NCBI GenBank assembly: GCA_030704615.1
Contig: CM060733.1
Location: forward strand, 12,214,001 to 12,278,000
Length of the DNA: 64,000 bases
Direction: 5' to 3'
From: Takakia lepidozioides
Taxonomy: Eukaryota > Plantae > Bryophyta
Shown here in pieces: positions 4,344 through 35,000 of this stretch. A program made the position numbers and the translations under genes. The number at the start of each line of letters is the position of its first letter. Position 1 is the stretch's first letter. The notes below the pieces were generated by a model that ran no database searches, was not told where the DNA came from, and was given only the letters and a program-made list of their open reading frames with translations.

Positions 4344-4586
4344 GGACCCACCCCGAAAAGGCGCAGTAGCCACAACGTGAAGTGGCTCTTAGTTACGCCG
4401 GCTTAGGCCGGAGTTTTTTCTCTCTCAGCTATGGCGATGATCGAGGCCTGGGGAGGCTCGACTATAAGAAGATTGAGGCCTCGCGAGCCTCCTTGTGAGA
4501 TAACCTAGAGAAAGAAGAAGACTCCGGCCGGCGTAACTAAGAGCCATTTCGCCTCACTGCTACTGCCCCTTTTCTGGGGTGGGCCC
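4344..4586. mobile_element. Foldback/MITE-like element with ~80-bp imperfect terminal inverted repeats
   Basis: cccaccccgaaaaggcgcagtagc...gtggctcttagttacgccggc is the near reverse complement of gccggcgtaactaagagccat...gctactgccccttttctggggtggg. TSD unclear. Confidence 0.65.
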
Positions 4587-5491: not shown

Positions 5492-5940
5492 CATGACCTG
5501 GTCCCTTTTTTCTTGGAATATTAGGGGAGTTGGTTCTGATGCAACGGTCCCCAAACGTCGTCGTATCCATAGATGGTCCTCTTCCCTAATCTCTCAAGAC
5601 TCCATTATCTTCTTGCAAGAGCAGAAGTCGGATGAAAAAAAAAATCAATCTCTAGGACATTTTTTCTGGGATCCAAAGGTAGCCTTTTGGAACTCCACTA
5701 TCGTGTATTCAAGAGGGGGCACTGCCATTCTTCTTTCTGGTTCCATCTCTAGCTTCTTTTCTAGTGTCGCCATATGGGAACGTGATAGAGCTCAACCTGT
5801 CTTCAGCTCTCCCATTTCCCCTTTGGAGACTGGCTTTATTGATATTTCCACTCATAATCAAGCTTCGGATAGAGCGATCTTCTGGTCTATGCTCCGCCAA
5901 AAGATTTTGGATCATCCTCATTGGGTCTTGGCCAGTGATT
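5492..5940 (+). pseudogene. L1-type LINE ORF2 AP-endonuclease fragment
   Basis: SWNIRGVG, IIFLQEQK, SRGGTAILLS and HWVLASD match APE motifs (SWNxRG, LQETK, GGxAIL, GDFN region). Truncated, no RT. Confidence 0.75.
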
Positions 5941-6854
5941 TGTGGTGTACATACCGGAAGATCTAAAAGTTCTGTTTGAGAAGCTTCAGAGACAGCTCAC
6001 ATAAGGGCAACAGAAAGGCAGTCTTGTGTGTTGCAAAAGTCACCTACTTCCTTTCAGCTCAATACACTGTCTACAAAGGGACGGTAGGTTGACAAACAAA
6101 CTCAGTAATACACAGCTGCAAGATGGGTAACTTTTTGAGGCCAACCACAATTTGAAAACATTACCCTTCACGTAAAAGATAAATGGGCAACTGTATGAGA
6201 CTGTCCTTTTAAAGCCAAATCCACCAATGCAGCTGAAGGAACAGGGTAGTTGATCTCCAGTCTTTGTTTTGAGCCAGTGCCTCTTCAGCTGTCTCAAACT
6301 CTCTTTCATGGATTCCAGACAGATCTTGCACCAGTCCAAGTTAAAACCTAAACTTGTCTAACATAGAGAGTGCAGTCTTGACATTGTGGTGTCAATCACA
6401 AAATTTCATTGGAGTATCCAGTAAGGAAAATGAAATTGCAGAATCTGAGCAGGGTGAGTGACTGAGCTCCGTAACAGGGCAGTCGGTTTGAATACTCAGA
6501 GGAAGGCCTGAAATACTCCCATTCCAGGGCTGCTTTCCGGTGTGAGGAGACTTCCTCTGCGAGGATGATGGCCTTCTAGATAAATGCGATTCTAAGGTAG
6601 CGTCCGCAGGTTCAAATGTAGCATTCTCGGGCTTAATCCAGTAAATTTCTGCATAAAATGATACATCTTTGCCTAATAAGGCTTTCATTTGTTCTTCAGT
6701 TTCACAACAGGTCTCCATGATAAAATCCTGACAATTCGAAGAGATAGACAATGCTTGACAAGAAAGTAATCTAGCTGCGCACCCACAGATCTTGACACCC
6801 TTTCACATCCTCATTTGCTCGAAAAGACAAAGTCTGCCAAAGAAAACACACTCT

Positions 6855-8218
6855 TCAATACCGACGTCTGACAGGACTCCGTGATCTGTGGCCCCCGCGA
6901 GGTGACCTGCAATGACCAAAAGGAACAATACTAGGAGGTCAGCACCATTGATTGGCTTCAAGCATAAGGAGAGGACACCAAGTTGCCCTCCACTGTAACA
7001 AAGACATCCATCCCTATGTAGATACACACAACAGACCTGGGAGTTAAATGACTAAGAGGGCCTCAAGATACTGCCATGCATGTGCACTCAGTCAGTGACT
7101 ACAGGAGTTCCTGATTATAATAGGGTATGCCTCTGCATGCACTAGACAGATGCTGGGTCAGGGTATCATATTATAATAAATCAGGCTAGACCTCTCACCT
7201 TCTGCGAACATTGCGCCGGCGAAGGGGGCCACTGCTGAAGGCCCAGTTCACAGAAATAGTTTGTGTGAGCAGCTGTTTCCCATTGAGGTTATCAATCGCT
7301 GCCTGTGCCTCGTTCTTCGTCTCATACTCAATCAATGCATAACCCTAGAAAGAAAGCCACACATGGCCCTGGATTAGAAGTACACAACAGATCTTGAAAC
7401 AAATTCACCGCTGAAGATGCTGAACTTAAGAATCCCGGCGTTTTTCCAAACTATCTTGCAGCTAAAGAATGTACTCAACTCGAACAACCGCCCTTCTCTC
7501 CTAGTGAGAAGGTTGATGAAATGATGAAATATACAGACCTTGACAAACCCAGTTCGACGATCGAGATTGAGGTGCAAGTTCTTGATCTCTCCATATTCGG
7601 AAAAGTTCTCGTGGAGGTCATCCTCCTGGGCTTCTTCATGGACACCCGTTATCAAAATTATCCAACCCTCTACCGCTGTTGCCCTTTTTGTCAAGGACCT
7701 CAAGACAATGAACCAACAATACAGATGAAAACGCTATCACTACCCACAACGAAGGATTGCAATCCCAACAGTATCAAGGTGCTTAGGTTAACTATAACTC
7801 TTACTCGGTCTCCCTTGCAGCAGCATCAGTAACCCACCACTATCAAGGCCTTGCCCGAATCAGCACGCCAAAGTATACTCCTAACTGCCATAAAATCTCC
7901 TTGGAAAAAAAATTGACATGAATGGATACAGCGCTGAGGGCCAGGCCCACCCCCTGAATCCAATGACTCGAACTCTTTGGCAGCATAGCGATTTGCTCGG
8001 TCCAAGTCGGCTTCCTCTCGAAACCCTCTCCCCTTTGTCTTCCTTCCTGCAGCCCCTGGACCGCCAAGGGAAGCTCCCACCCCACCGGTAGTTATGGTGG
8101 ACTTGAGCTTGGGGGCTGGTGCAGGCACAGCATCCATATCGTCCATGGGAACATCGTCGTCTAAGAGATCATCTTCTTCTGGCTCGAAATCCACAGCATC
8201 GACCTCTGCCGTTGTCAT
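6855..8218 (-). CDS. RBM8A: RNA-binding protein Y14 / RBM8A (exon junction complex); 4 coding exons 8218-7930, 7675-7539, 7344-7199, 6906-6855
   Basis: Spliced with GT-AG introns: [18 protein letters not shown]...KTKGRGFRE...[60 protein letters not shown]...[34 protein letters not shown]. Diagnostic plant Y14 RRM; frame intact. Confidence 0.97.
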
Positions 8219-8340
8219 TGTCACCTTCTCAACTGGTCCTTCGCACTCACTGAATTATTCCGAACGAAGTAATCTGACAGCAATGGACGCGGGACAAACA
8301 CACATACACAACACAAGGCCAGGCTCAACACAGGAAGCAA

Positions 8341-9136: not shown

Positions 9137-11721
9137 TTACCTAGAAGTCGTTAACAGAGAATGTGCCTAGTACGAAACACCTAAGGCAGTAGATTGCGTA
9201 CGGGGATCTGGCATGATTGAGGGGAGAGGTGATAGCAAAATGGCGGCTTGTATGTCATGCACAGTAAAGGAGAGAGAAGGTCTGAGTGCTAGAGCTATCC
9301 TGCGTTTAGAGAGTTTCGTGAGCAAACACTATGGCGTCCAGCTCTGAGCGCGGTTGGTTTGAGCTTGATCAGTTTGAGGTTCTGCGTATGCGACAAACCC
9401 AGGCATTGGAATCACGTTACATTTGCGAGCTCGCCCACAATTTGCTTCCTGAACATATTGTGTTTGTAGATTATCCGGAAGGAGAGCATCTCCCTCGTCC
9501 TAAGCTTCCGTTGGATACACCCTCCGAGTTCTGGGCTAAGACGTTTGAGGAGACTGCCCGTAAGGAGGCCTCCAAACCAATCCACACCAAAGCTGAACAA
9601 AAAGAACAAAGTCGCCATATTCAAGAGCCTCTTCAAGGGGCTTATGCTTCCCGCCTCCCTTAGTTGGGCTGTGTTGGGCATCCCACAGTTTTCTGTGAGT
9701 CAGAAATTGGGTGTTGAACTTGAGACTTTCTGCCGCCTGGGAAGCCGAGCCCTCTGCGATTGTGGGAACTGGTTAAGGGCGAGACCTCCATCCTTCTTGC
9801 TAATTTGAGGCCTAGAATTCCTCCTCCCCCTACTCAAGATCCCACTTGGGAAGAGCTAATCACCGGCATTGCAAACCCTGATTTTCCTTTTTGTCCCAGT
9901 GATGTGTTGGTCTTTCCAGGGATCTGCTTTCGCCGGGAAACGATTGGATTGTACAGCCAGAAGCTGCGAAGAGCTACCCTGCTCACAGTTTTTTGGTAAA
10001 AGAAAAGGTAGTTCGCAGCATTGTTCGGGTCATGTTTTGGCTCAAGAGTGAGGACGAAGTGTGGCAATTCTTGGGTGAGGGAGTGTACCTGCTACACAAG
10101 CATCGCTTCATCACCTCCCACTGTGTGACCGGGTGGGACTCAAAGCTCAGTGCCCCTTCAGACAGGACGTAGTGGGTTCTCTTCCTCATGCCTATTTTCA
10201 CAAGATCTATGCTAGAAAAAGAAGCAGAAGAAACAATGGGGCTGAGTGAATTGGAACAACGTGCAGTGGAGGAGAGGGAAGAGACAACAGCTAATGAACA
10301 AAAGAACTTTGAGAGGGGAGAGTCGTTCGGGGATTTCAAACAGAAGAACCCGGCGACTGAGTCTCCACCCACATTTGATGTGGAGGAACTGTGCGAAGCC
10401 ATGGGGGTGATTTCTAATTGCCCCCCTCTCATGAAAATGTTGTTGAAACAAACGGAGGTCTCCGACACTCCAACTCGGAAGTCCGAGCCTGACGAGCGAA
10501 TGCACAAGTAGCAATACCCTGAATTCAACTTAGGGGAAGATTTTGAATCGTTCTTGGAGTTGTTTGAGATTAGTACCGAGATGAATGGTGTTCCGCCTAG
10601 GTTTCAAGTCAAGTCCTTCTGGATTTGTCTCAAAGGAGAGGCCAGAAAGTTGTTTGAATCCAACATCAAGGACAAAGCTGATATTACCTGGATAGAAACA
10701 AGGGAGTTGGCTCGCAAGCTGTTTCGTGAAGAACAGCCCATAGCTTAGTACACCACTCCAGACTTGAAATTCCACTATGGTGACAGTGTTTGGAAGTACT
10801 ACTCTGAGTTAAGGACTGCAATTTGTAAGTCAGTCCTAATTGCCTCTGAAAGACCACGTATTTTGAAACATTGCTTTGTGAAAGGTCTTCCCCCTGCTGA
10901 GAAAGTGTTTCTTCAAAAGCAAATTTATACTACTGAAGATGAGATGGTGGAATTAATTGAAGAGAGACTCCGCCTCAAAGTTGCCAAGACAGACTTATCT
11001 AAAGCCACCACTGCAAAACACACGCATCTTGCTAGTGACAGTAAACATGTAGGGCATACTGATGGGGACACCTTGGGGTGAAAGGTATTGCGGAAGATCT
11101 AGTTCCTTCCATTGTGCATGAGTTGTCATCTTTTCGTAATGAAATCTAGGGAGAACTCCAAGCCTTCAAAGCTGAGGTAGGCTGGAACTCTGCTATCCCT
11201 GCCAAGACTGGGTCTCAAGGTAAGACTAATGTTGGAATTCGTCATGAAGCCAAGCCTTTTGTGGTGGCATGCATGATCTGCAAGTCCACAAAGCATTACA
11301 CCAGATGGTGCCTTGTTTGACTTACCTGCCCTTATTGAACAATTGCAAAAGGACAAGAAGCAGAAGGGCACTTTAAACGAACCAGGTCATCTGTGAGGGT
11401 GCCAGATAACCATGGTAAGAGCCCCGAGACTCTGGTAAGTGTCATTTTCTCTCGTGATTTCAAACTCATGCACTGTGAAGTCTTTAAACGCATTAGTAGA
11501 GAACGGATTCACCCATTGATGACCCAATGTCATGTGGGAGACCTTTCATTTCCTTGTGTTATTGATACAGGATGCACCATGTCTGCTATCCCTCTTAGTA
11601 CAGTTCGAATTCTTGGATTGAAGCTTAGCTCTACCCATGGCCTTGAAGTCACCATTGCCGATGGCACGGCCTATGAACCCATGGGATTGAGTATTTTGCC
11701 TATTTGTATCAGTGGAAAGAC

Positions 11722-14571: not shown

Positions 14572-15148
14572 ATGTCACTCCCCTCTCATCGTGTCACTCC
14601 CCCTCCTATTGTGTCACTCCACCTCTTAGGATGTCACTCCTCTTATGGTGTCACTCGTCCTCTTAGGGTGTCAATCCATCTCTTAGGATGTCGCTCCTCC
14701 TCCTCTTATGGTGTCACTCCACCTCTTAGGATGCCACTCCTCTTATGGTGTCACTCGTCCTCTTAGGGTGTTACTCCATCTCTTAGGATGTCGCTCCTCC
14801 TCTTATTGTGTCACTTCACCTCTTAGGATGCCACTCCTCTTATGGTGTCACTCGTCCTCTTAGGGTGTCACTCCACCGGGCTCCTCCTGTTATGGTGTCA
14901 CTCCACCTCTTAGGGTGTCACTCCTCTTCTTATGGTGTCACTCCTCCTCTTAGGGTGTCACTCCTCTTCTTATGGTGTCACTCCTCCTCTTAGGGTGTCA
15001 CTCCTCTTCTTATGGTGTCACTCCTCCTCTTAGGGTGTCACTCCTCTTCTTATGGTGTCACTCCTCCTCTTATGGTGTCACTCCTCCTCGTAGGGTGTCA
15101 CTTCACCTCTTAGGATGTCACTCCTCCTCTTATCGTGTCACTCCACCT
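14572..15148. repeat. 20-bp minisatellite (consensus ~CTCCTCCTCTTA(G/T)GGTGTCA), roughly 28-29 units
   Basis: Head-to-tail units without spacers; alternating variants give a 40-bp higher-order period at 14900-15060. Confidence 0.95.
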
Positions 15149-15578
15149 CGGCCATTTATTTTCATAATTTCTTCTAGATTTCAATTTTTCTATCTATTTC
15201 TGTACATTTTGAAAACTATTTTTGCAGCGTTAATCTCCAATTGCAGTAAAAGCTGGAAAGTTTTGGGCATTTTGTTGTGCAGAGAAGGCTCAAGAATATG
15301 GATTTTGGAGAGCCCCTCCTTCTCCTTAGGTCTACTACTTGTGAATTGGTTGGGGGGGAATGCTTGCCTTCAGGGCTTTTGGGAAGGTTATTTTTTCTTT
15401 TGCATTTTGATTCGTGGGAACGGCCTCTGTCCCCTTTTATATACTGGTATACCGTACTTACCTAGCTTATTAGGCACTTCCGCGCCTAATAATTAATAAA
15501 AATGGAATATTATTAGGCAGATTCATTTTTATTATTTAGGCACCTCACCTAGGTAATTTCCAAACATTAGGCATGTAT

Positions 15579-15794: not shown

Positions 15795-16109
15795 AGGATC
15801 TACGGTTCTTATCCAAAGGCACCACGTCTATAACAAAATAACATCACGAACAATTGTTCTTAACCTCCCTCAAAAAGGTAATTTTTTTCTTAGAAAACAT
15901 AATGGTTTTGAAAATAGATATTACCTCAACAATAGTTTTTGAGAGACGTCAAAAACCATTGTTGAGGTAATTTTCTTTTAAGGATGATGTTCCTGATCTT
16001 AACAATCTCTCAGATTCAGAAGATTCACATGAGATAGGTGATGAGACTTATGCGGATGTAGTTGCATCAATACAGGGCCATTTGGAAGTTGTGTGGACAT
16101 GAACCCAAT

Positions 16110-17077
16110 AGATGCGGGCAAATCTGGCTCTCGGCCAAAGAGAAGGAAATAAGACGAGAATGAGGCAAGTGTTGCTTGCTTGCTGAACCTGTAGCCCATG
16201 GCTAACCAGGGTAGCTGAAGGTCCCAATCTCCAAGGTGTCCCTTCAGTAAGCCATACTTGCGCAAACCCCTCTTAACCGTTTGCACAACCCTCTCTGCCA
16301 AGTCATCGGCCTCAGGATGATCCCGAGAATGGTGCGGTGGTCTATCAAGGCCTTGTCACATAACGCCTGAAACTGATCCAAGAATGCATACGTAGCTCCC
16401 TCACTAGCTTTATCAAGCAATGGAACCAACTCGATCCACTTGGAGAAGTGCTCCACCATTACCAATACGTACTTGTTGTGGCGCATGGTCAGTGACAACG
16501 GTCCTGCAAAGTCAAGACTCCATCTGTAGCCCAATCCCATGATCGGAAGAGGGTGCAATTATGGTGTAGGGCCGTTGAATGAAGCACGCATCCTATCACA
16601 CACCATGCACCTAGCCACAAATTGTTGCATTTCTATGTGCATACCACGCCACCAATATTGCCCCTGCAGTAGACTATGAGTGCGTCGCACCCCAAAATGC
16701 CCCAACTCCTCATGGGTATGCCGCACTAACCGTGCCCGTTGTGTTGGGTGAGGCACAATCCTCACTTGACCATCCTCCCACACTCGGAGCAGGTATGTCC
16801 CCTCCCACTTGAACCTCTTGGCTCGTTGTAGGATCCGATCCCTCTCCTTGGCAGTCACAGTGGCTGCCGTGTCTCCAGTGCGGAGATAGTCCAACGCAGC
16901 TGAATCCTCATGTATATCTTTGGTGCCATCTTGCTCATTGCTGGCCACAGGGTCCTCAGACACTTGGTCTACAGTCATCCATGTTGTAGATCCAACCAGG
17001 CCTTCTGCTGCCAAGATACACAGAAATGCAGATGCATGCCATCCGGGCACCATCTCCTCGTCCATCCACCATGTCAC
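16110..17077 (-). pseudogene. Integrase (HHCC zinc finger + rve core) of the DNMT-gypsy element
   Basis: HTHEELGHFGVRRT...CMVC; RWSLDFAGPL; AERVVQTVKRGL; LLFGREP. Internal deletion and stops; truncated after DLPASI. Confidence 0.9.
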
Positions 17078-17097
17078 TGAGCTCCAGTGTCATCCTG

Positions 17098-18446
17098 CTA
17101 GCTCGTGCATGGATTGTGACTCAACCCATCCGCATCCCGATTGACCAAACCCGGTCGATGCACAACCTGAAAGTCATACTCTTGAAGTATGAGTGCCCAC
17201 CGTGCAAGCTTCCCTGTAAGCTTGTGTGACTCCATCAACCACTTGAGTGGCTTGTGATCCGTGACAAGGGTGAAGAGATTGCCGTATAGATAGCACCTGA
17301 AGTGTGCCACGGCCAACACTGCAGCTAAGCACTCTCCCTCATATGAGCTATACTTAGCCTCTGCAGCGTTGTTCGAGCGGCTAGCATAAACCACTACGAA
17401 CTCTCTTCCCTCATCATCCACTTGTGTGAGCACCGCTCCAAGCCCCAGCATGCTCCAATCTGTATGCAGTTGAAAAGGACGCCCGCTGATAGGTCGTCTC
17501 AAGATGGGCGCCGAGCTCAACCTCGCCTTGAGCTCTTGAAAATTAAAGCTCGTTCTTGCTCATCTTCCCACTGCCACTCCTGATCAACCTTGGTCAGCTT
17601 GGTTAGCGCCTTTGCAATGGCACTAAATCCCTTGACAAACCGTCTATATTAGTTTGCCAACCCCATGAAAGCTCGAACTCGGCTCACATCCGTGGGGCGT
17701 GGAATCTGAGCAATGGCCTCTACCTTAGTCTGTTGTACCCCCAATCCTCCAGGATATATCACGTGACCCAGATACTCAATCTGGTTGTGGAAAAACTTGC
17801 ACTTCCCCGGATGTAACTTCAATCCGTGCGCCCTCAAGCCCTCAAATACCACCTGAAGGTGTCTCTCATGCTTCTCCACCGTAGCACTAAAGATGATGAT
17901 GTCATCTATGTAGCACCGAGCAAACTCCACCCCTGCTAGAATCTTGTCCATGACTCTCTGAAACTCTGCAGGAGCGTTCTTAAGCCCAAATGGTAAGAAC
18001 CGCCACTGGTATAGGCAATCCTTCCCGTGCTCATTGATTCGCAACTAGTGATATCCGGATCGTAAATCCAAAATGCTAAAGACCTTGGCATGCCCAATGG
18101 CATCAAAGATCTCCTTTTGTGTTGGCATGGCATACCTATCAGATTTGGTCTGACGATTTATAGGCCGGTAATCACCGCACATACGTCTCTCCGTCCAATT
18201 GCCATAGATATCCTTCTTGGCTGGCATCACTGTGGCTGAAGCATACTCTCCACCAGATAGCTCTACCAAACCAGCCTCCCAGAGGTCCTGAGTCCTCATT
18301 TGAATCAAGGACCTCTCCATGTCACTGTATCTATAGGGTCTCCGAAAGATTGGCGTATCAGTGGCCAATTCAATGCGAATCTCTTGACCCTTCAGTACTC
18401 CCAAGTCCTTCAAACTGAAGGCAAAGCAGTTCCTGTAAGCCCTCAA
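17098..18446 (-). pseudogene. Reverse transcriptase and RNase H of the DNMT-gypsy element
   Basis: RMCGDYRPIN, FSILDLRSGYH*, LPFGLKNAPAEFQR, CYIDDIIIFS, EYLGH; RNase H FQLHTDWS...EGECLA...VTDHKPL. Confidence 0.95.
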
Positions 18447-18869
18447 GAACCGCCGTATACGTCGTCTCTCTTCTCCGGTGACTATGGGTCCAACATCAGG
18501 CTCCCAGTTGTCCTTCGTGACTGCAACCTTGAGTCCAACAGACCTAGAGGTAGAAGACGCGTCCCGTGGTTGCTATGCTGCAATCTCTTGAGCAGTGACC
18601 ACTACCTGCTCTGTCAGTGATAATGCCTCATCCTGCCTTATCATCTCATCCTTGAAGACCTCCTCAACCCGAGAAAAATCCCCAACCTCATCCATCACTG
18701 CCGCCTGGCTGCCAACTCCCTCTGAACCTCGAGCACCTCCCACGTGTGCCATGGATGCGACCTGCACCTCGTGGTCCTCACCTGTTCGTCCCCACTCGCT
18801 GCCTGTACCGTCTCGGTAGGCAGAGAGACCATCAAGGGAAGTGTACTCTGTACTCTGCGCTACTCAGCC

Positions 18870-19820
18870 ATAGCCAAGCTGATAATCCAGGTCAAGCAAT
18901 TGAGATCCATTGCTTGCCCCAACACCTGACGACGTGATGCCTCAGAAAGAGATGGCACCACCGTAGTACCAGTGGTAAAACCCATCGCCCGCTTGCGCTC
19001 GTCAGCATTGGGCTCCACTAACTCCTGCAACTGGCTATCCCACAAGAGGCCAGGTCCACCATCCCGGAAAGCATGAGATCCTGGAAAGCTGAGCAGTGTA
19101 GGCAATGTTGCTCGTGGGTGACCTACCTTATTGATCACTGCCAAAGGTGACCGGTCATCGTGTCTCACACGCTGAGACGGGTTTTTTTAATGTCAAAAAT
19201 GCTATCCACCGTGAGGTTTGGTGGCCGCTGCACCCCATCAAATGCACGCTTAAGCAGTGCAGGTGGGGTCCACCATAGTCGTGGGCGATGAGCCCGTGAC
19301 CCCACTGCAGCTGTATCCAGCAACACTGCTAGCCCAAGCCAAGACCATACTTGATGCATACTGGCCATCACCTTGGCCCGAGAATCACCCATCAATGGCA
19401 CATTCTCCAAGATATATGCCGGAGAGTTTGTCTGCTGAAGTTGTAAATAACGCAAGACCCTTAACATCTCCCAAAACAGGCGTGACCTTGAGTCTTGTAA
19501 CCCATTGCCATGCCCGGCTGATGAATGCCCTTGGCAGGGCCAACCTGCCACTACCAAGTGAATAAGGCCAACCCGCTCCAAATCATGCGCCCCCAGCAAA
19601 GAGATGTCTGCTGGCAAGGCTTGTTGGTATCCACGAACTGCAGACACTGGCAACAAATCAGGGTACTGCTGCACAAACTGAGCAACATGGCGCAGTGAGA
19701 CGCGTCATGCAATCTCATCCCTCTCCACATACAAGTAATGTCGAACTCGTACACCTGCCTGCAGCACTGCAGCCAATCCAGTGCTGATCCCGCCAAACAA
19801 GTCCAGAAGGCATATACCTT
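18870..19820 (-). pseudogene. C5 DNA cytosine methyltransferase domain (DNMT3-like) embedded in gypsy pol
   Basis: Motif I LDLFGGISTG, II YVERD, IV AGWPCQGHS (catalytic Cys codon 19536-19534), GLQDSRSRLFWE, VI ILENV, VIII AHRPRLWW, IX-X ERKRAMGF...RRQVLGQAMD, in canonical order. One in-frame TGA (19707-19705) and a frameshift near 19190. Confidence 0.92.
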
Positions 19821-20279
19821 CATCCGGGCACTGCCATACAAGAGGTATGGTGTCTAGTGGCAACAACTGAGGTGGTCCTGGTGCAATCACCGCACTCTCC
19901 TCCTCTCCTGACGGTACAAATGTCTCTATCCAGGCTTGTTGCACCCGTCTATCAGCAGCCTGCTGCAAATCCTTGCTCGTACCCCACAATGGAGTATGAG
20001 CAACCATGGCAGGCAACTCTGTCGTACCATGCATATCATTCTGTTCTGCTAGAGGTGACACATCCTCTACGTGGGCATTGCCCTCCAGCAACTCTCCAGG
20101 CCAACTAACTGCAGCTGTGAAGGCTGCTAGTGTTGACATCTTGCCCCGCTGGGCGGCAGCAACACCCCCAATGAATATCACAGGCAGCTGTACACGACGA
20201 CCATCCCCTGACTGCCATCCAGGCCTGTAGGATGCTGACTCCTCCAAAAAATCTAGGGTGAAGCCCATGGAATATAACA

Positions 20280-20600
20280 CTGCCCACCAACAAGGACATC
20301 GTAAGAGACCGTTTCTATCACAATGGCCTTGGCTCATATCACTGAGCCATCTATAGGATGATCCGGCTGTAGTCTAATGGCCAACTCACGCCGTATCATG
20401 CCCCGAGCCTGCTCTGATCCTCCTAGAGATGTCAGTATCTGAAAAGAACAAGGCTCCATATCCGTCTCCATGAGGCCCAAACCCGCAATAGCAGCTCTGC
20501 CCAACATCAGTGGCTGAGCTCCCGAGTCTAACAAGACCCGCAGTGGCCGGTATCTCTTGCCTGCCGGTCCACTCAAAGCGAAAATATCATCGTGGTTGTC
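20280..20600 (-). pseudogene. Retropepsin (aspartic protease) of the DNMT-gypsy element
   Basis: RVLLDSGAQPLMLG...YDVLVGG (DSG catalytic motif and the C-terminal DxLxG motif). Confidence 0.85.
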
Positions 20601-21049
20601 TAACAAGACAACTCCAGGTGTCATCATGGCTCGCTCAAAAGCTGGCCTAGCTGGCACCTCCATCAACCTAGCAGCTGCAGCTTGCCATGGCGCAGCTGTG
20701 GCAGTCATGACCCTCAAATCCGAGGATCCCTCTACTACTACACCTTCTTCTAACTCCGTAGAAGATGAAGTGACCTCCCCACTGTCACAGAGTGTTGCTG
20801 CTAGTCTGAACACTGTAGCTGGTCTTATCCCCGACGTCGCAATCATGGTTGTCGAGAACTGTGGGGCCTGACACACAGAGATGGCCGCCCCCAACAACAT
20901 ACTGGCTGCACTAACCTTGGCAGCAGGTGTTAATGCTGCACGTGTAGCTCTCCCCAATGGCACAATAACCTCCGCCTCGGTATCCGTGGGGCGAGAATTA
21001 GGTGCCATGGATGTCGTCGACACTGTCTCCGCCAAGATGAATGATTAAG

Positions 21050-22760
21050 GCAACCTAGCCTGACGGCTTGCCTCCCCACGCTATGGATCCAACTCCACCT
21101 CTGCACCTCGTGGCTCAGGAACTCGTGTTGTTCCTCGAGTGACGGCTGCAACAGACGCCACCTACACTAGTGGTAGTGCTGCCCCACACATAAATCTCAT
21201 GCCTCCCAAGTCTCCTCCAGGATGACATTGCTGAGGAGGAACAGGAGGTGGACCCTCAGGTCTTGGAGCTGGTACCACCTAACCTGTGGCCATGGCAGCA
21301 AGCCTTTGCTCTAGCTATTGAAGCCGGTTGGCCATGCCTTGGTCAACACCCTGACCTCCACGTCCTTGGCCATAATGTGCTTGCCCGTATGGACAGAGAA
21401 GCTGCGAAATTTGCAAGACTTCCAGCGCAAATTCAGTGAGAGCTTGCGAGAAACCTACACTCGTATGAGGCGCTTGATAAGTGTGACCCAAGGGGTTACT
21501 GAAGCTTAGGCAGTCCAGTTCTGGTATGGAATTTTGGACTAAGGAGCTCAGGAGAAGGGTGTGGGATGCAACCCTGTTACAAGCGGCCCAACCCACATTA
21601 GCAGATGTATTTCTGCTGGCTGAGCGGATTGAGCTCAACATGGTGGAGGAGCAAGTTGTTACCATTGGATTTGGCAAGGACATGCCTGCACGAGACACAA
21701 CTGCCAGCCAAAAAGCACAAGGGATTACCCAACAGCGTGGTCAGGGGGGCAAGGTTGCCCAACCCAAATTCCATGGAGCTTACAGGGGACCTCAGGTGCA
21801 GATGCCAGTAGCTTCTTTTGCAGGCCAATAGCAACCGGGGGTGGTATGTTGGACATGTGGAGGACCCCATGTCAAGAAAGATTGCCCAGAAAGTGACAAA
21901 GGGTCGGCACAAGCACAACCTGCACAGTTGCAGTGTGGGCATTGTGGCAAGTATGGGCATGGAGATGCCCAGTGTTATAACTTGCACCCTGAGTTGCGGC
22001 GAGGCCAGTTCCAAGGGAACAATGGGTGGCCAAGGGCGAGGTGGAACACCTCAGAGAGGATGAGGTGGTCAGGCACGAGGTGTAGTTCTTCCGCAACTCC
22101 TGGAAGAACTCCACCACCGGGTTGAATCTAGGCACATGTGTTGTAGTCGTGGCAGGAGGAATGGTAACACCTTTAGAACTGGTACCACCTGCAGAAGTAC
22201 CGGCACTACTTGTTCCACTACTAATGTTGGCAGTGGGAGATATTGGTGCTAATGCAACTACTGGTCACGTTGTGCCTCAAGTAATGGAGACGTAGTCAGG
22301 TGACCAATACATCCTCCACTCCTCAATCTCTGCTTCATGTCCTCGTCTGAACTCGTGGTATTCGTCCAGGCGGGCCTTCCAAATGCTGGAACAGTCCCTT
22401 CCACGCCATGAATGGGGTGAACAGCTGTGGATTGCGCATCTGCTGCAAATCACACCAGCTGTCGAACTCCTGGATAAAGTCATCCAGCTCCATTGTGCCC
22501 ACAGCTCCAAAGTACCTACGAGGCCCCTTGGTAGCTCCATACATCTCCTCCATGTCGTCCCACAACAATGGCGAAGGAAACTGCACACCTGTTGATGAAG
22601 CCTCCGAGTCTGTGTCAGACTCTGCACTAGTTGAGGATGGAGGTAAAGGTGGTCTGAACCGAACACCTCGTCTTGTAAACCCACTCTCACTGCTACTGCC
22701 TGTAGCCGTACTCCCCTCAAAACCCTTGGGTAACTCCATGATGACACTCACAACCCGCAC
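21050..22760 (-). pseudogene. gag of the DNMT-gypsy element with two CCHC zinc knuckles; central 21387-22081 segment inverted onto the + strand
   Basis: Minus strand LDDFIQEFDSWCD...PRFNPVVEFFQELRKNY; continues on + from 21387 as TEKLRNLQDFQRK...CWTCGGPHVKKDC...CGHCGKYGHGDAQC; returns to minus at 21386 as GQAHYGQGRGG. Confidence 0.85.
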
Positions 22761-24564
22761 CTACCCGACGTGACACTATAAGGCTCTAGTATTAGTTCTA
22801 ATAGTAGCACGGGTGGGCACCTGTTGCGGTTTAAGGGTCATATCCCAGTGGCTAAGGACACCTGCACCTGCATCCACCGCAAGAACTCCTATGGTTGGCT
22901 GGTCATCAACCCAGCCTCACCATAGAAGAAACACTAGTGGTCTTGCTGGTCATCACTCCAGCCTCGCCACCGACATCATACTCTAGGATTGACCGGTGAT
23001 CAAATCCGGTCTAACCCCTACAAAACCAACATGATGTACAGTCAAGCATGCAGGTGTGGGAGGGATCCAAACACAAGAAATCAAAACATCAACACCCCCA
23101 CACCAAAATCCCTCCGCAGTGCTGCTCCTGCAGAATACCCCAGCCCAAAAACCCGGACTGACTCTTGCCTCCACCTATGGAAAGGTTTTGGCATACCGAG
23201 AGGGTGGAACGTTATGGGGAGGAGAGACTAAAGCAATTCCTAACCCCAGCATGCCCTCATCCCAACATTCACCATTTCCTATGTAGCCATACACTAATGT
23301 CAAAGAGCGACATGTGTGTTACAAACAGACATCCCTGACTTGACACAGCTTCTTCAATAAACCTCAAATAGATGTGGGGAAGATCTAATTTAAATTAGAA
23401 AAAATCTATAGATTTTTTTGTCAGGTCCAAAAAACTAAAACCACGCTATCCCCCCAAAAACTACGTCAAACGGAGCTCTTTTGACAAAGATATGACCAAC
23501 CAAAGTTTATCTAATCCCATAAACATACTATTTGTCCATTTAATCGACAATAGGCCTGATTTGATTTGATTTTCCTTTCTCCTTTCTCTCAAACGGTTTT
23601 GTGGGATCAACAACTATCGAAAACCAAAGCCACACTAACGATGGAGGCATTAAGGCAGGTGGGGCCACTGCTCACAAATCGTATAATACTGAAGGCCAAC
23701 GATTGACTTCAAGAATTCTATCCCAGTTCACAACCCTGATCAGAGCCAATGTTTTCAAATAACCTCTTTTCCTCGAGGTCGATATAGCCACAGAGTTCAA
23801 TTGCGGAGCTGTTGGGGACAGGATCCATGGAATAATTATATCAGTGATATTATCCACATCCTTGTGCCCTCCGTTCCCTGCAGGTTCCCGAGTTCTATGT
23901 GCCTTCTAGATCATGAATATCAATGTCCAAAACACTGGCATGGGTGCAAATGAAACATGAATTGCATTGCAGGCTTGGGAATTTTGTTGTGCAACTGTAC
24001 AATATGGAAATAAGTCAGAGCGACTTGCCTTCGCTATTCGGTTTCCACCTCACGGTGTTGTCCACGCCAGCCACTACCAATTCCTGATAATCACAACCTG
24101 AAGGGCAACTCTGCAAGGCTTTCGTGAGAAAGTGGCATATCCCATGCAAGCAGTACAACATCCGACAGTGCCCCAACACCTACCAAGGGTCACTGGGGTG
24201 GCAGCCACGCTAATTTTCCTCCAATCCTTGTGTACAGGTTCCCTCTTGGCTAAGCCGACTTGACCTCAATGTCTTAGTCCACGATCTTGCATGTGTAGAG
24301 GAATCGAGTAGGGAAGCATTGACGAGTGTGAGTGCCAGCCGCTTGTGCATGAGCCCTGCAGAGGATATCACTTGTACCGCTCCAGTAAGGGAGGGGCCCT
24401 ACTACGATTCAGGCACTTTTATTTTTGAAGATGTGAACCATCGTAGAGATTCCGATCAGTAGAAATTCCTAGCATGAGAGTCTGCTGGGCAGAATGGTAT
24501 ATATTCTCGAGGCTGCTCCAAGACCTAACGGTACAACTATGACTATTGTTCATATCGTCACATG

Positions 24565-26382: not shown

Positions 26383-29066
26383 CATCACGGACTTCGCCAT
26401 CTCATCCTTTCGGTAAGCCTTCCGGATCTTCTTTTGAAGCGTCGTCTCGCCCCTGTACACCAACATGAGCTGCTACTTTCTACTTAAAGCATCGGCCACC
26501 ACATTGTCTCGTCCCGGTTTGTACTGGATATCCACATCGAACACTACCAAAGTGTCTTGCCACCTAAGTTGTTTTGGGGACAACTTAGGCTGCGTGGCTC
26601 CGGGATGTTCTGGACTGGAGCTACCGCCATCCGCTGCTTCAACTCGGCAAAAGCTTGGCCACAAAAGGTGTTCCATACCCATACCTTGGACTTACACAGA
26701 AGGTCTGATAGCAGCCCCGCGATCCTGGCAAAATTTCTCACATACTTTCGGTAATAGGAGGCGAGTCCTAGAAAGGATCGCACTCCCGGGACCGAAGTCG
26801 GAGGCTCCCAGTCCAAGATCGCCCTCACCTTTCTGTCATCCATTTTGACCTCATCCTGAGGAACTCCACTTTTGTGACCCCGAATTCGCATTTTGAAGCT
26901 TTGGCATACAGCTTCCAGGGTTCCCGCAATTTCGGGAACTCCCTTTTGAGGTGCTCCAGGTACTCTTCATTTGTTTTCGAGTACACCAAGATGTCGTCGA
27001 TGTACACGATCACAAAGTCATCCAACCACTCCTGAAAAAGGCTGTTCATTAGCATGCTAAAGGTCGCGGGTGCATTGGTGAGCCCAAAAGGCATCACCAA
27101 GAACTCATATGAACCATATCTTGTCCTACACGCGGTCTTCTCCTCATCTCTTTTCGCCACTCGGATTTGATGGTAGTCGGAGCGCAAATCGATCCGGCTG
27201 AAATACTTCGCTCCTGCCAACCGATCGAAGAGGTCGTCGATCCTTGGCAAAGGGTACCGGTTTTTGATAGTCACTTTATTCAGAGCCCTGTAATCGACAC
27301 ACATCCACAATGTCCCATCTTTCTTGTCTGCGAATAGCACCGGGGCTCCGTAGGGTGAGTTACTCGGCTGGATGTACCCCTTTGACATTAGATCCTTGAG
27401 CTGAGCCTTCAGCTCGACCAACTCTCTGTGGCTCAACCGGTAGGGCGCCTTGGCAGGCGGCTCCGATCCCGGTATCACCTCAATCTTGTGGTCAACTCCC
27501 TTCGCGGTGGCAAGCCGCTTGGTAAATCCTCCGGCATCACATCCTAGTATTCTCCAAGATCCCCTTGTTCCAATGTGGGCTCGGCTCCCTATCGCCTTCT
27601 CCCTCCACTTGTCTTATGTAAAGCAAAAACTGGGGCTCGTGTGGCTCCCCCACGGCCCACTCTTTTGCTAATAGCAGGTTTATTCGCCCTCCCACTGGGT
27701 TAGGTGTTTCCGACACTCGTAAAACTTCACCACCATTCCCACACGGTAGCGTGACTATTCTCTTGCGGCCATCTGTGACTGCTCCGGATTTGCTCAAAAA
27801 GGTCATCCCCAAAATGAGATCCACTCTATCAATCTCGCAAATGGTGAAGTTCTCACGTCCCTCCCAATTCCCGAGCTGAAGAGGAACATCGAACGCCAAC
27901 CTCGTCGCCAATTGTGGTTTTCCTTTGGCAGAATGCACTTCAAAGGAGGCCCCCACATCACTTGTCGAGAGCCCCAGCTTCCTTCCGTTGTCGGTGTCAT
28001 GAAGGAGTGCGACACTCCTGTGTCCATCAACAACGACACGTTAGTTCCGGAAATCATCCCACTCACGAACATTAACTGACTCCCTTTACGTAAAGGGCCA
28101 GTCTCTTGATACAACTCACAAAAGTAGTTGCCTACCTTGCAAGTCTTGGCGACCACTGCTTCCACCAAACGGTTGATGGAATCTTTGGACAGCTCCGTGG
28201 CCGCCCGAGTCATGTTCAATTGACGGGGCTTCGCGCACTTCTTAGCCATGTGCCCGGGCTCTCCGCAATTAAAGCACACTCCATCGAAGGTCGCCTTCTG
28301 TCCATTATAAGCCGTCGCACCTGATTTTCTTTTCGGAGCACCGGGTGCCGCCTTGACGTGTGAAGGCCCTCCTTTCGATTTCCATGTGTCATTGTCGCCG
28401 CGTGGCCTATCCCACTTCTTTTCCGGTCGGAAGGAATCACCCTCCCGCCAAGTCTTCTTGCGGTTCAGCTCCGTACAGCCTTGTCTTTCGCCCCTAGGGA
28501 CATCCGAAAAACATTCAGCCCTTTCAATTGCCTTGTTCAAAGTCTTAGGTGGCTTCTCCTCCAACTTCCGCCTGGCCCATGGGGCCAGTCCCGCCACAAA
28601 GTTGAAGACCATTTCTGGTTCCGCCATATCCGCGACTTCGAGCAACAGCACATTGAAAGCCTGAACATAAGCCCGAATGTCACCCGTTTGCTTCAAATTC
28701 CTCATCTTGTCCCGGGCGAGCCTGGACGCGTTGAGAGGCACAAACTGTGTTTTCATAAGTTCCTTGAACCCACTCTAGCTCAAGGTTTCTGGGTTTGGAT
28801 TTTGATCGTGAAGGCGTTTCTGCCACCATTGTTGAGCATAGCCCCTCAAATAGGTGGGAGACACTTCCACCCGATCCTCGTTACTCAACTTGGCCACCCG
28901 GAAGTACTGCTCTAGCTCCAAGAGCCAAGTGTTGAGTGCCTTCCGATTTCGGACGCCCTCGAAGGTGTTGGGTTCCTTAGGCTTCACCTTAAACTTTGCC
29001 TTAGTGGAAGTGACATTAGCCGCTTTCAACACGTCTTTCAACGTCCCGCCAAACTGCGCCAACAAC

Positions 29067-32000
29067 CACTACAATAGATCGCGGTATATATGACTGTATA
29101 TATGACTATCCCGTAGTCATAAACGGTACATATGACTGCAATGACATTAAGTCATGCAAACCAAGTGAATACAATGAATATAGTATGGTCGGTCATGGAT
29201 GACTACAATTAGATGAACCAAGTGATACATCTCACTGTCATGTGGCAGTCATATGTACTTCTACTATATATGACTTAGTGTGCTACTGCAAACTGTACAC
29301 ATGTCTCTTTTTTATAAGTCCAGGAGGTTTTGTGGATGTGTGCCATATGGCGTCTCCCGAAACTGCCATGTGGCATATCCATGAGGAGGATCTGCAGTCA
29401 TCATCTTGACTACAACCATGCTAATATCTGGACACGTGGCATATAAGGAGAGGTCTTACAGTCATTGTCATGACTACAAACATCCTGATATGTGGACACG
29501 TGGCATGTATCGAGGAGGTCTTGCAGTCATGATCATGACTATGACATGCTGATAAATGGACACGTGGTGTCATATGAGGGGTTGTTTTGAACTTTTAAAT
29601 GTATTGGATAGTCAGAGCAGCGACTATGCTTATCTTGTTAGGGCTAGTAGAGATCAGGGTTAGTATTATTCAATACTAAACAAAGAGAAGAACAAAGGGA
29701 AGAACAGAGACAAAAAATGACTCTGCAAATGAATGCTTTATTCACAGGCAAGAATCACAGGAAAGAACAAAGTCAGCAAGTGGAAAGGACAAAACATAGG
29801 CACTTAAAGACAACAGTAGATGTAAGAACTGCTGCCAGTCAAATTTACAATATAACACTGGAGTCCCAAAATTTGCTCCTCAAACAATAGTATGACAAAG
29901 TGCAAAGGACACTACATATGCACTGAAGATAGCAACAGATGTAAAATGCGTATGTCTTTCTACATTTGCTACTGTTCCAGCACAACAACAAATCAGCAGG
30001 ATTCACGTCCGGCCTGCTGTGTGTACCCTGCAAACATCGCATTCCACGACACCACATCTCGTTCAGCCATGGTGTTGAAAACTCCCTTCGCATCCTTAAT
30101 GCACCCACATTTGGCATACATGTCCACCAGGACAGTGTTCAGAATGACATCCGGCACAATTCCAGCTTTGACGATGTCACCATGGACCTCTTTCTGGCCC
30201 TCTTGGATGAATCTGGGCCCACACTCTATCCCTGCTCCTTCAGCTATCCATGCCTATGCACAAATCATGCATACATCCTTGCCTTGCTACTAGCAGCTGA
30301 CGATGACAGCCTAGATTTGTTTTAGGAAACACCCAACTCAACTTATCACACTAGTTCCTATGCTCAATTGCATCTGTTACTCTCTATAATCAGACAGACA
30401 TTCACTTTCTTGCCTCGATTGTCCCACCATTGACTGGGTAAGAAAGTATTCATTCCACAACTTCTCCTCATCTCTGTTACCTGTTTCTGGATACTTTTAT
30501 GTTGTCACATTGGCAGTACTCTTCGTAGTCATACTTCAAACAGGCATATGCCCTGCAAAACATGCAAGAGCAAGAGACAGACAGAAGGGAGACAGAAATC
30601 AAGACAGAAGGGAGACATAAATCAAGAGTGTCCCTTCCAAATCCAGGTACTAAATGTACAGTAAGAGAAATTATACCTCCTCAACATCCCGGAGCTTAAG
30701 CTGCTCAATAAGGAACAACTGCTCAAAAACATCTCGCTCCTCTTCAAGCTTATTAAGTTCAATAAGATTCCAAAAACCGTAGCCCATGCAAACACCCAAA
30801 CACAACAAAGTCATTGGAAGTAGCATAAGTAACATTCATTTATCTAAGATGATGATGCTTCCAGACAAAATATCAGCCTGCAACCAACACACATAATGCC
30901 ATTTCTCTCATTTCTTACTTGCCAGATTGTCTGAGCTGACTGAGACAGCACATAAAAAAGAAGTCCCAAGGGAAAGGACCTGTTTGCATGCTTGCTCCAG
31001 TTGCAAAATGTTGCTGACATGCGAGCCCATCAGTAATGATCCAGTACTGTCGCTCCTTATGTGGCCCAGCCTCTAGCATTCAGGCAGCTTACATCACCCT
31101 CTTTTCACTTTAACTTCCAAGTTGTGCTCAAATTTCAGCACCAAGAAACATCTCCTCATAGTAAACTGGATAAAGGACGATATTAGACTGGTGTGACTGG
31201 CACAAATGCTCCACTGACCATGACCACATTTCCTGACTGTTTAGACAGAAGATAGCATAAGCTTAGGCCTGAACAAGTTGCTTACACTAACAAATGGTCG
31301 ATGAGTGATTCTTGGACGGCACCTAGGCAGCATTACCTAGGACCCCTGCCATGAGGAGGCAGAGTAAATCAGTTGGGAGAGTCTGGTGTTCCCAGCAGCT
31401 CTGACAACGAAACACAAATGAAACAATAGAAGAAATACGTTTGCTTCAAGAAAATCCAAACTCTTGTGAATCCTTGGAGATTCTGACAGCCTGAAAAGGA
31501 ATTTCAACTAGTGAGATGGTCACAAATGCCGCATGTGAAAACAATCCCCCACTAATGAGCAACTCATCCGGTCATTCCATCATCAACCATTGACAAGTCT
31601 CTTTATTGTTATGCAATCTGCTGAGAGAGAGCGAGAAGTATAAATTAGACTAAGCCTGCCTACAGTTTCACATCTTGAATGTTATCCCATGTTATCCCAT
31701 AGGGACAGCTCCGGCACCTCAACAATCAGTTCCAGAGTAACAATGCAATCTTATCAAAAAAATCTCATACACTCTAACTGAGTGTGGATTGAGCATCGTA
31801 AGTATTCATAACAACATCCATTCTACCAATAAAGTGTAAAAGGTTGAGCAAAGAATTGTATGAAGAATGCATGACAAGTTTCAGTATAAATAGAAACACT
31901 TGCCTCACATCAGAAAGAGTTCGCAATTCTTGCCCTGGCAAAGTTGAGCTGGCCATGCAATGCTCCCCGCAGTCCTGCTCAGGAACAACAACATTCACTC

Positions 32001-35000
32001 ACTGATCCCACTGGAGCTCTTTGACAACTTTTGAGCTACAAGACAGTTCTCTAGAAGAGAGAGACAACGTCAGCCAAAGCCAACATAAATGAGAGCCCCA
32101 TCCCCACCAGGGCTACCGCCCTCTTTGGAGGAGGGCTCTAAAGGCCCTAGACAAATGTTGGCTAACAGCTGCATGGGACCCCTCATAATATGAAGACTGT
32201 CCACAATCAATAGCATTTAATGTCACTTGCATCTGGGGGACTCTCTTTTCAAGTTGTTGCTTTGAGTTTGGAAAAAATCTTCCAATTGTCTCAACATGGA
32301 GCATCACAGTCTCCAACAGCTTCATATGGGTAAACTACTTCACATTTACACAAAAAAGGTGATACATTCCCAGATAACTGAGGCTGTCTCAGTGAAGGAA
32401 TGGACATTGCTACAACAGATGAAGACAGCAAGATAGCAATTGCCCTCTCAATTGAGAATTGTTTCATCCAGCTGAGGTACTTCAAAGCAGCAGTAATCAG
32501 TGCTTACAGCGGTAACTTATGGCTTGCTCCACAGCTGTAATTGGACAAAGGAAGTTTCTACAACATGTCTGACACATTGTTTAGGCATCCCTAGGTCCCT
32601 GCAGATTTCTGATACTAGAACAAAAGATTGTTGTTGCCTCCTTTGAAGCACCCTTAACCTCCAAGCATAACTATCCTGATCCGAGAGGGCCACAATGTCG
32701 AGAGCACCATTCTCCTAATTAAGGGAAACAGAGGGGCAGAAACTATCAAAGGTTCACTCAACCAACTAACATGCAGAATTCAACATGGAAACTTAGGGTC
32801 GATTCTAATAAGAAGGAAAAATAGGGTGAAATATGTTGAAGAAAGTGCCTTCATTAGCAGTGCCTGATTTATCAATTCCGCCACTACTGCTGCAGCTTCC
32901 AGTTGACCATCTATCCATGTAGGTTGCTAGCAGCTATTGATCCACAAGGAATCATAGGAGCTTGAAGTCCGGCCCTCTTCGATGAATCTGGACCCACACT
33001 CTATCCCTGCTCCTTCAGCTATCCATGCCTCTACCAAACTCATGCATTCACCCTTGCCTTGCTGCTAGCAGCTGACAATGAAAGCCTCAAATTGTTCTAG
33101 GAAATACCCAACTCAACTTATCACACTAATTCCTATGCTCAATTGCATCTTCTACTCTCTGTAATCCAACATGCATTCACCTTTTTGCCTTGATTGTCCC
33201 ACCATTGAAAAGTATTCTCTAAACAGAACGCTCCCAGGCTTGCATACGCATTGCAAACACAAACAAATGTGATGCGGTTGGGCTTTAACCTTTCGCGCAA
33301 CATTTGCTCATAGGTCTCCAAAGCATTCCTACCAACCGTATGGTTGGTAAATCCTGCCAACATTATATTCCACATGATCAAAGATCGTTGAGGGATTCTG
33401 TTGAACACTTGGTGAGCATAGATGTACACCAGGGGAATGTTCAGAATGACATTTGATACAATTCCAGCTTTGATAATGTCACCATGAACCTCTTTGACCA
33501 TTCCCAGGGCTCTAAGCGCATATGCATATTATAAACACAAATTAGCATGACCTGGTTTGGCTTCATCCCTTCCCACATCATTTGATCTTAGGTTTCTAAA
33601 GCCTTAATCCCATACCCATGGCGCTACACATACCTTGCAATCATGGCACTCCAAAACACCATATCTCGTTCAGCCATATTGTCGAACTATCCCTTTGCAT
33701 CAGGCTTGCTGCACCCACATTTGGCATACATGTCCACCAGGGCAGTGTTCAGAATGACATCTGGTACAAATCCAGCTTTGATGATGTCACCATGGACCTC
33801 GATCTTTCCCCTTTTCCAGAGCTCCCAAGCTTGCACACGCATTGCAAACACAAACAAACGTGATGTGGTTGGGCTTCACCCCTTCGTGCATGCTCATAGG
33901 TCTCCAAAGCATTCCTACCACACCCATGCTTGGTAACTCCTGCCAACATTATATTCCACGTGATCAAAGATTGTTGAGGCATTCTGTTGAACACTTGGTG
34001 AGCACCATGATGCTTCCGCACTTAACATACATGGAGACAAGGGTGTTGAGTAGAAAAACATTTGGCGTGCATCTACTTTGGATAATGTAAGTGTGCACCT
34101 TCTTTCCAGCGTCCAGACCTTCCATCTTGTTGCACTTAAGCAAGGGACAGACATACGTACCTCAAACTGCTAAAATGCCTCATTGGTTTTAAGTCTGTAG
34201 AGCCTCTGTCAGTCTGCTTGCCGCAAAGCATCTTCACATGCCCAGAAGTGCCAGAAGAGGCATGGTGGACTCCCTCTCTTGATCCTCTTTTAGAAGCTAT
34301 GGTCATGGTTGAGGTGCGTGGTTTCATGAACTGTGCCGCTGCAGCTGCAACCTTTAGTTGACCATCTACCATGCAGGTTTCTTGTAGCTATTGATCCATA
34401 GGGAATCACATCTGGTAAAATTCCAGCTTTGGCGATGCAACCATGCACCTCTTTGCCCTTTTCCAAGGCTGCCAGGCATGCACACGCACACAAACCTGAT
34501 GTGGTCGGGCTTCACCCTTCCCCAATCATTTGCTCATAGGTCTCCAAAGCCTCCATCCCATGCCCCTGCTATGCATACCCTGCAAGCATGGCGTTCCACG
34601 ACACCACATCTCGTTCAGTCAGAGTTTAGAAAACTCCCTTCGCATCCTGAATGCACCCACATTTGACAAACATGTCCACCAGGGCAGTGTACATGATGAC
34701 ATTTGGTACAATTCTAGCTTTGACGATGTCACCATGGACCTCTTTCCCCTTTCCCAGAGCTCACACACATTGCAAACACAAACAAATCTGATGTGGTTGG
34801 GCTTCTCCCCTTCGCACATCATTTGGTCATAGTTCTCAAAAGCCTCCATCCCACGCCGTAGTTGTGCATATCCTGCAATCATCGCACTCCACGATACCCA
34901 CATCTTGTTCAGCCATATTGTCGAACACTCCCTTCATACATGTCCACGAGGGTATTGTTCAAAATGACATGTGGTACAATTGCAGCTCTGACAATGTTGC

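Follow-up and report, generated by a model that had tools for sequence, protein, structure and literature searches.

A DNMT3-like cytosine methyltransferase ahead of a conserved, probably leaky stop codon in a bryophyte family of PHD-finger Gypsy retrotransposons

Some transposons of dinoflagellates and algae carry cytosine methyltransferases, with a role that is not yet understood. The closest described system, and the precedent for what follows, is KnitGypsy-Dnmt3 of Klebsormidium nitens (de Mendoza et al. 2018, PMC5890265); later papers speak of 'streptophytes' only, the passages of a preprint (bioRxiv 10.64898/2026.05.21.726589) having 'streptophytes (Gypsy-DNMT3)' with land plants unnamed. 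Here we analyze a 64,000-nucleotide stretch of the bryophyte Takakia lepidozioides (GenBank assembly GCA_030704615.1, contig CM060733.1, positions 12,214,001 to 12,278,000 of the forward strand; hereafter the window, in whose own numbering positions are given), which holds a Gypsy retrotransposon with a DNMT3-like domain between its protease and reverse transcriptase. Comparison with its relatives leads to the proposal, held with moderate confidence, that this is a decayed PHD-finger Gypsy in whose family a leaky stop follows a Gag-protease-DNMT3 product, the methyltransferase being made like Gag, packaged, and likely methylating the element's own cDNA at CG sites prior to integration.

A literature search that took in few subscription papers returned no methyltransferase-bearing Gypsy element in land plants and no description of such a stop; the figures and some supplements of PMC5890265 and of the 2026 preprint, which are possibly relevant, lie outside this result. 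Likewise, no such element is mentioned in the bryophyte-paper passages searched by term or in the available passages of the moss DNMT3 paper (PMC6453930), and the terms 'methyltransferase' and 'PHD' are absent from the available main text of PMC6317226, which covers the REXdb Phygy and Selgy clades. New here is a land-plant lineage in which probable programmed readthrough would place a captured methyltransferase at the level of Gag.

Positions 16107-22739 encode, on the minus strand, gag, protease (PR), methyltransferase (MTase), reverse transcriptase (RT), RNase H (RH) and a truncated integrase (INT), and the element as a whole is laid out as follows (ORF, open reading frame):

22740..23323, minus strand: probable 5' terminal repeat and leader, with a TGTAAC start at about 23323; putative boundary, partner repeat missing
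22082..22739, minus strand: N-terminal part of gag, with its ATG at 22739 and a frameshift near 22369; over 62 aa, 82% identical to the Marchantia gene model P0005
21387..22081, plus strand: inverted block that includes two zinc knuckles and the central part of gag; right edge approximate (22025-22081)
20244..21365, minus strand: end of gag and aspartic protease, DSG at 20528-20520; several stops, frameshift near 20260
18863..19821, minus strand: predicted unpermuted DNMT3-like C5 cytosine methyltransferase of about 325 aa; PF00145, E = 4.9e-11
18567..18575, minus strand: stop TAG followed by CAA CCA, end of ORF1, in frame with the RT; fits the CAR-YYA context
17650..18446, minus strand: reverse transcriptase, RVT_1 E = 1.6e-24; stops at 18047-18045 and 17651-17649
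17071..17541, minus strand: RNase H, RT_RNaseH E = 4.5e-35
16107..16783, minus strand: integrase with H2C2 finger and core, truncated at about 16105

The first-pass annotation of this DNA had recognized a Ty3/gypsy element, and the domain set PR followed by RT-RH-INT bears this out, both by Pfam and by the layout of the relative L021 described below. RVT_1, RT_RNaseH and Integrase_H2C2 score above their Pfam cut-offs downstream of the MTase; rve (22.1 bits vs a cut-off of 32.6) and Asp_protease_2 (14.8 vs 24.3) fall below theirs in the broken window pieces, as does Asp_protease_2 in L021 (E = 2e-4). The same annotation had bounded the element at 16110..22770; the 3' cut lies at about 16105, and the 5' limit probably lies further out. 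In the DNA sequencing run X1 the summed contig depth drops from 284,720 (23025-23325) to 12,818 (23326-23626) and then to 220-650 (beyond 23627), and a TG start is present at 23323; thus, the element probably starts near that position. This copy is dead, as had been noted: stops and frameshifts occur along its whole length, part of gag is inverted and the 3' end is missing. The MTase itself is interrupted three times, by stops at 19707-19705 and 18862-18860 and by a frameshift near 19180. The inversion (about 21387-22081), where tblastn matches change strand, is private to the window copy: run contigs bridge 22082 to 21387 on opposite strands in all four of four runs. With its 3' end lost from about 16105 on, the copy shows neither a terminal-repeat pair nor a target-site duplication in the window, and it also lacks the C-terminal PHD finger and the 3' repeats that its relatives have. 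The window yielded no tRNA gene and no convincing primer-binding site. The 3' cut, the probable start near 23323, the inversion and the conserved stop at 18575-18573 had all gone unnoticed in the first pass.

The identification of the domain as a C5 cytosine methyltransferase is borne out by PF00145, which matches the piece 19165-19704 with 43.1 bits (cut-off 22). The motifs that the first-pass annotation had named are all present on the minus strand and in the order it gave: LDLFGG (motif I) from 19806, the Cys of GWPCQG at 19536-19534, ENV at 19407-19399, then RPRLWW, ERKRAMGF and RRQVLG. The order is thus I-IV-VI-VIII-IX-X, with FGG, PC, ENV and RxR retained; the domain fails a test for the permuted order of the DRM type, and it is intronless. 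By pattern match, the PC motif is found in 44 of the 54 rows of the MTase alignment and ENV in 46. For the MTase of the relative L007 the best sequence match in the PDB is DNMT3A (E = 1e-11); DNMT3B and 3C come next, and DRM2 and HhaI rank much lower. Its predicted model (mean predicted local distance difference test score, pLDDT, 93.2) has DNA-bound DNMT3A as top fold match (6f57, TM 0.73/0.83, 21% identity), and all 32 fold matches listed for it are DNMT3A, B or C. Host plant DNMT3 carries DUF3444 as a C-terminal companion domain (PMC6453930); downstream of the MTase, no Pfam match to DUF3444 was found in the window pieces, L007, L021, P0455 or P0459. The domain is thus predicted, from sequence and modeled fold, to be an unpermuted DNMT3-like C5 cytosine methyltransferase.

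A search with the window MTase piece gave 40 protein matches, among which gene models from Marchantia, Calypogeia and Sphagnum are 51-76% identical to it; some of the matching models also include RT and RNase H. The DNA of relatives was drawn from 33 related metagenome loci (the L numbers). These show PR-MTase-RT in 16 cases, MTase-RT in four, PR-MTase in eight and the MTase with neither neighbor in five, i.e. an MTase directly after the protease and/or before the RT in 28 of the 33. The near-intact L021 has an ORF at 976-5082 (gag-PR-MTase), a single stop, and an ORF at 5086-8226 (RT-RH-INT-PHD) in the same frame; the latter ends with a PHD finger (E = 2.6e-10) and gave no chromodomain match, so that it does not qualify as a chromovirus (the window copy is cut before that point). 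A further PHD-bearing relative is presumably REM1. In run X1, 55,427 contigs fall on the region, with a summed depth of 2.8e5-1.1e6 along the whole element, which is not a copy number; sister copies are known as run contigs. The family is thus very highly repeated in the runs holding the window DNA.

These observations bear on the notion that the domain is a stray piece of the host's own DNMT3 or DRM gene, a one-off decaying neutrally in this copy, which we regard as extremely improbable. It would be in keeping with the broken MTase of the window, and with a ratio of nonsynonymous to synonymous substitution rates (dN/dS) of 0.4-0.7 in the MTase between dead moss-like copies, a value similar to those of their RT, RH and INT. 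The reading is refuted by the X1 depth over the MTase (4.6e5-7.5e5), which is like that of the rest of the element, by the same position of the domain in the 28 loci and in liverwort gene models, by the lack of DUF3444, by the co-occurrence of another retroelement domain in 97 of the 150 best profile matches, and by dN/dS values of 0.12, 0.11 and 0.09 for the MTase among the uninterrupted L021, L022 and L024 (RT, 0.02-0.04). The MTase in uninterrupted relatives is thus under purifying selection, with dN/dS of about 0.1; these values come from L021, L022 and L024, such selection not being measurable within the window's own family. Accordingly, the MTase is a conserved family trait in bryophytes and not a stray host fragment, and the land-plant setting, the position of the domain in sister copies and its non-neutral evolution all came out in favor of what the first-pass annotation had suggested.

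In both the RT tree and the MTase tree, the window copy groups with liverwort and moss copies and lies next to L021/L024. In quick trees the PHD-finger Gypsy group of the window also takes in elements of Coleochaete, Closterium and Klebsormidium, and the window MTase clade is separate from K. nitens GAQ93235.1 (quick tree with no host DNMT3 outgroup). Gene models with probable false introns (P0003, P0012, P0023, P0025 and P0032) and six redundant PR-MTase rows were omitted from the trees, and 14 of 83 RH-MTase-INT rows were used. A profile search with the MTase recovered 401 clusters at E <= 1e-30, the best 150 of which show three layouts: PR-MTase and then an end, MTase-RT in one ORF, and RT-RH-MTase-INT. 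The last, with the MTase between RNase H and integrase, is seen in P0285-P0427; in 80 of the 150 best matches RH comes before and/or INT directly after the MTase. Since the same MTase family occurs between RH and INT, and the 14 sampled rows of this layout form one supported group, the domain seems to have moved within pol. Viral contigs gave no match to P0035 and six weak partial matches to the MTase profile (32-39% identity), which were not used.

The K. nitens cluster P0367 matches the profile at 6e-66 and belongs to the same wider family; its identity with the published element is not established. GAQ93235.1 ends 12 aa past its MTase, and the neighboring model KFL_013780010 has an RT. P0367 and P0074 (KFL_013780020 and KFL_013780010) have adjoining gene numbers, each on a 7,497-base contig, with PR-MTase split from RT-RH-INT; P0373, P0386, P0395 and P0412 likewise end 12-13 aa past the MTase. 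Because PR-MTase and RT-RH-INT lie in separate neighboring models in K. nitens, a second kind of split is possible in the algal clade. As to element ends, two moss-like elements (L023:1679-10805 and L014:5936-13483) show TG...CA termini with matching 4-base flanks (AAGG and CACA), and L023 has split direct repeats in the order A1 ... B1 A2 B2 (A at 1679-2017 and 10350-10691; B at 10238-10350 and 10693-10805).

The first-pass annotation had taken the MTase as part of pol, in one frame with the RT. This is not supported: in this clade the MTase is the last domain of the gag-protease ORF, which closes with a conserved stop, and RT-RH-INT comes next in the same frame. Since this stop precedes the RT, the MTase would enter a Gag-Pol fusion only via readthrough and mostly be made with Gag. 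The junction is spanned by 27 of the 33 loci, in each of which CAR-YY comes directly after a stop. As full hexamer, the window and L007 have CAACCA, L021 and L022 CAGTTA, L024 and L032 CAATCA, and 22 moss-like copies CAACCC, with TAG as the stop in 15 of these copies and TAA in seven. Thus, CAR-YYA is exact in the window and five loci, representing four of five lineages, with CAR-YYC in the 22 moss-like loci, and the exact hexamers vary at degenerate positions only. Between lineages, 6-18 of 30 bases are common on either side of the stop, and synonymous sites are near saturation for most lineage pairs. As controls, CARYYA follows none of 265 decay stops inside domains (CARYY follows eight) and occurs at 16 of 5,186 in-frame positions. 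Across sister copies in run X1, 396 contigs cover 18520-18630 with no alternative letter listed at the stop; the hexamer has one, at 18572 (depth 59 of 792,641 in X1; one of two contigs in run X7).

At the level of reading frames, a single stop divides the MTase-bearing ORF from RT-RH-INT in the same frame in L007, L021 and L024. None of 19 proteins picked from the window's MTase clade runs into the RT: 17 end 51-183 aa past the MTase and two earlier, those Marchantia and Calypogeia models that reach a natural end having their stop 76-80 residues past it, and the model P0003 appears to skip the linker. None of the listed runs is recorded as RNA; a contig of run X8 (type guessed as 'RNA?') crosses the junction with no joint listed, and is counted neither as expression nor against splicing. 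CAR-YYA is the readthrough signal of tobacco mosaic virus (TMV), and it works in plants with UAG or UAA (PMC2754532; PMC2194720). The likely layout is hence Gag-PR-DNMT3, a leaky stop, and RT-RH-INT-PHD, and we judge it quite probable that ribosomes read through the conserved UAG-CAR-YYA stop.

The same evidence bears on other routes by which an element with an active enzyme could produce RT-RH-INT, viz. re-initiation, an internal promoter, or splicing, which together we consider quite unlikely. Re-initiation could draw on an in-frame ATG three codons past the stop in the moss-like family, five in L022 and 14 in L024; however, the first ATG comes 85 codons on in the window and 48 in L007, and none precedes the RT start in L021. 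Splicing has a parallel in Ogre, where an intron parts GAG-PROT from RT-RH-INT (PMC6317226), but here donor- and acceptor-like sites are not common to five loci, the linker is about 50% AT and the ORFs abut at one codon. A similar-looking stop in Tca2 is not read through in yeast (PMC2194720), which speaks for such routes and against leakiness. None of them needs the conservation of CAR-YY, and in the four lineages with an unshifted linker its length (369, 411, 486 and 495 nt) is a multiple of three with a single stop. Splicing and re-initiation thus fit worse than readthrough, as there are no common splice-like sites and the ATG varies in distance or is absent.

In the proposed mechanism, ribosomes would mostly make Gag-PR-DNMT3 and sometimes continue into RT-RH-INT-PHD. 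Lying in ORF1 upstream of the probably leaky stop, the MTase would therefore be made in capsid-like amounts. The element's protease would free it inside the particle; that it is so released and packaged appears fairly probable. The freed enzyme may then methylate the new cDNA before integration, likely at CG, an activity and preference that we put forward tentatively, at slightly under even chances. A pre-methylated insert might resemble host chromatin or silence itself, this purpose being the least certain step, and the PHD finger on the integrase would select the landing chromatin. The scheme builds directly on what was observed: the domain order, the DNMT3 fold, the catalytic motifs, purifying selection acting on relatives, a conserved stop in its sequence context, and a high repeat level. 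In its broadest form it would posit an old PHD-Gypsy clade, ranging from streptophyte algae to liverworts and mosses, that combines a TMV-type leaky stop, DNMT3 loaded into each particle at capsid stoichiometry and cDNA methylated at CG before insertion, and, in genomes with a very high repeat level of the family, provides an extra source of de novo methylation for the land-plant epigenome; this we offer as speculation, with more doubt than confidence.

Several points weigh against the scheme. On the side of the stop, the 22 moss-like rows represent one family with several near-duplicates, their hexamer is imperfect (CAACCC) and an in-frame ATG follows directly. The Coleochaete transcript P0045, a member of the same RT clade, stays open for 90 residues ahead of the RT as against 43-50 in the loci; L007 shows one more stop, between PR and MTase, that lacks the CAR-YYA context; and no consistent RNA structure was found 3' of the stop in six sequences (z from +1.4 to -2.9). 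The trees were inferred in quick IQ-TREE runs and carry no bootstrap values. Moreover, the MTase of related elements shares an ORF with the RT or sits between RH and INT, and because of these layouts Gag-level dosage is not required by the group as a whole. On the side of the enzyme, a low observed/expected CpG ratio of the element (0.48, vs 0.80-0.87 in three of the window's Gypsy stretches that have no MTase) would fit cDNA methylation, but the contrast is weakened by the values of the whole window (0.55) and of a CACTA-like stretch (0.52). Finally, the KnitGypsy-Dnmt3 enzyme gave no methylation in yeast, a result that its authors call inconclusive (PMC5890265).

Given this inactivity of the algal enzyme on yeast DNA, the MTase might have been kept for a non-catalytic, nuclear or other role, e.g. 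nucleic-acid binding in the particle, RNA methylation, or action in the nucleus on host chromatin or sister copies. Gag-level dosage, far above the one or two cDNA molecules per particle, would suit such a job, and PMC5890265 itself names RNA methylation and host benefit as options. Set against this are the catalytic PC, ENV and RxR motifs kept across lineages, a predicted fold nearest to DNA-bound DNMT3A/B, and the de novo CG methylation by SymbioDIRS-Dnmt3 domains in yeast (PMC5890265). We consider such other jobs unlikely, if not negligibly so, and favor methylation of the element's own cDNA.

Elsewhere in the window, exons of the host Y14/RBM8A gene lie at 7374-8254 on the minus strand, with exon 1 matching best in Sphagnum and Calypogeia (78-80% identity), then in Riccia (76%) and Ceratodon (70%), and no named vascular plant above 64%; this points to a bryophyte host that is none of these. 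A second Gypsy family, which we read as chromovirus-like, is seen at 26400-29070 (minus strand), 61500-64000 (plus strand) and 1000-2300; its stretches are 88-94% alike, have no MTase and are those with the CpG ratio of 0.80-0.87. Repeats related to it are found at 3065-4120, 36500-37530, 48050-49060 and 60850-61830. Further features are a tandem array of a 20-base unit with more than 20 copies (14577-15189), degenerate PLS-type PPR repeats with stops (29900-35050, minus strand; CpG ratio 0.30), CACTA/En-Spm-like remains at 50111-57687 with weak Transposase_24 and DUF4216 matches below cut-off, and a short AP2-domain-like stretch between stops at about 24660 on the minus strand.

The copies in Marchantia and Sphagnum bring the question of role to tractable land plants with methylation mutants. 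If the stop is leaky, the MTase would be a Gag-level product and not a one-per-RT passenger; and because PMC2754532 (2009), in its available passages, lists plant-retrotransposon readthrough as candidate cases only, the conserved stop offers a clean test. Gene models in which the linker is skipped (e.g. MARPO_0091s0058), or which terminate at the stop, can wrongly be counted as DNA methyltransferases of the host.

Among known systems, KnitGypsy-Dnmt3 shares with the present family the Gypsy domains, an intronless unpermuted Dnmt3-type domain with its catalytic residues kept, and purifying selection, and with the relative L023 also the DIRS-like split repeats, the window copy being without its 3' end (PMC5890265). 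It differs in that its DNMT shares the Pol ORF with RT and RNase H, whereas here a conserved stop lies between them, and the present family has a land-plant host and a very high repeat level. As the DNMT is not in the ORF of the RT, we class the family as a variant working like KnitGypsy-Dnmt3 and not as the same family. SymbioDIRS-Dnmt3, SymbioLINE-Dnmt and the EpiLTRs are likewise retrotransposons with cytosine methyltransferases, but of other element classes or DNMT clades, and represent independent captures (PMC5890265; bioRxiv 10.64898/2026.05.21.726589). Host plant DNMT3 (PpDNMT3a/b) has the DNMT3-type catalytic domain in common and differs in its DUF3444, whereas DRM is permuted, unlike the window MTase (PMC6453930). 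The Tat element Ogre has a coding region similarly split between GAG-PROT on one side and RT-RH-INT on the other, but it carries no MTase and splices over a gap of about 274 bp, where the gap here is one codon (PMC6317226). As in TMV, one in-frame stop with CAR-YYA lies between an abundant and a rarer product (PMC2754532; PMC2194720), and the pol/env stop suppression of SIRE1 and the candidate case of RIRE2 likewise combine a stop with CAR-YYA. Unlike in these three, the stop here comes after the protease and a captured enzyme and before the RT, with readthrough predicted from sequence.

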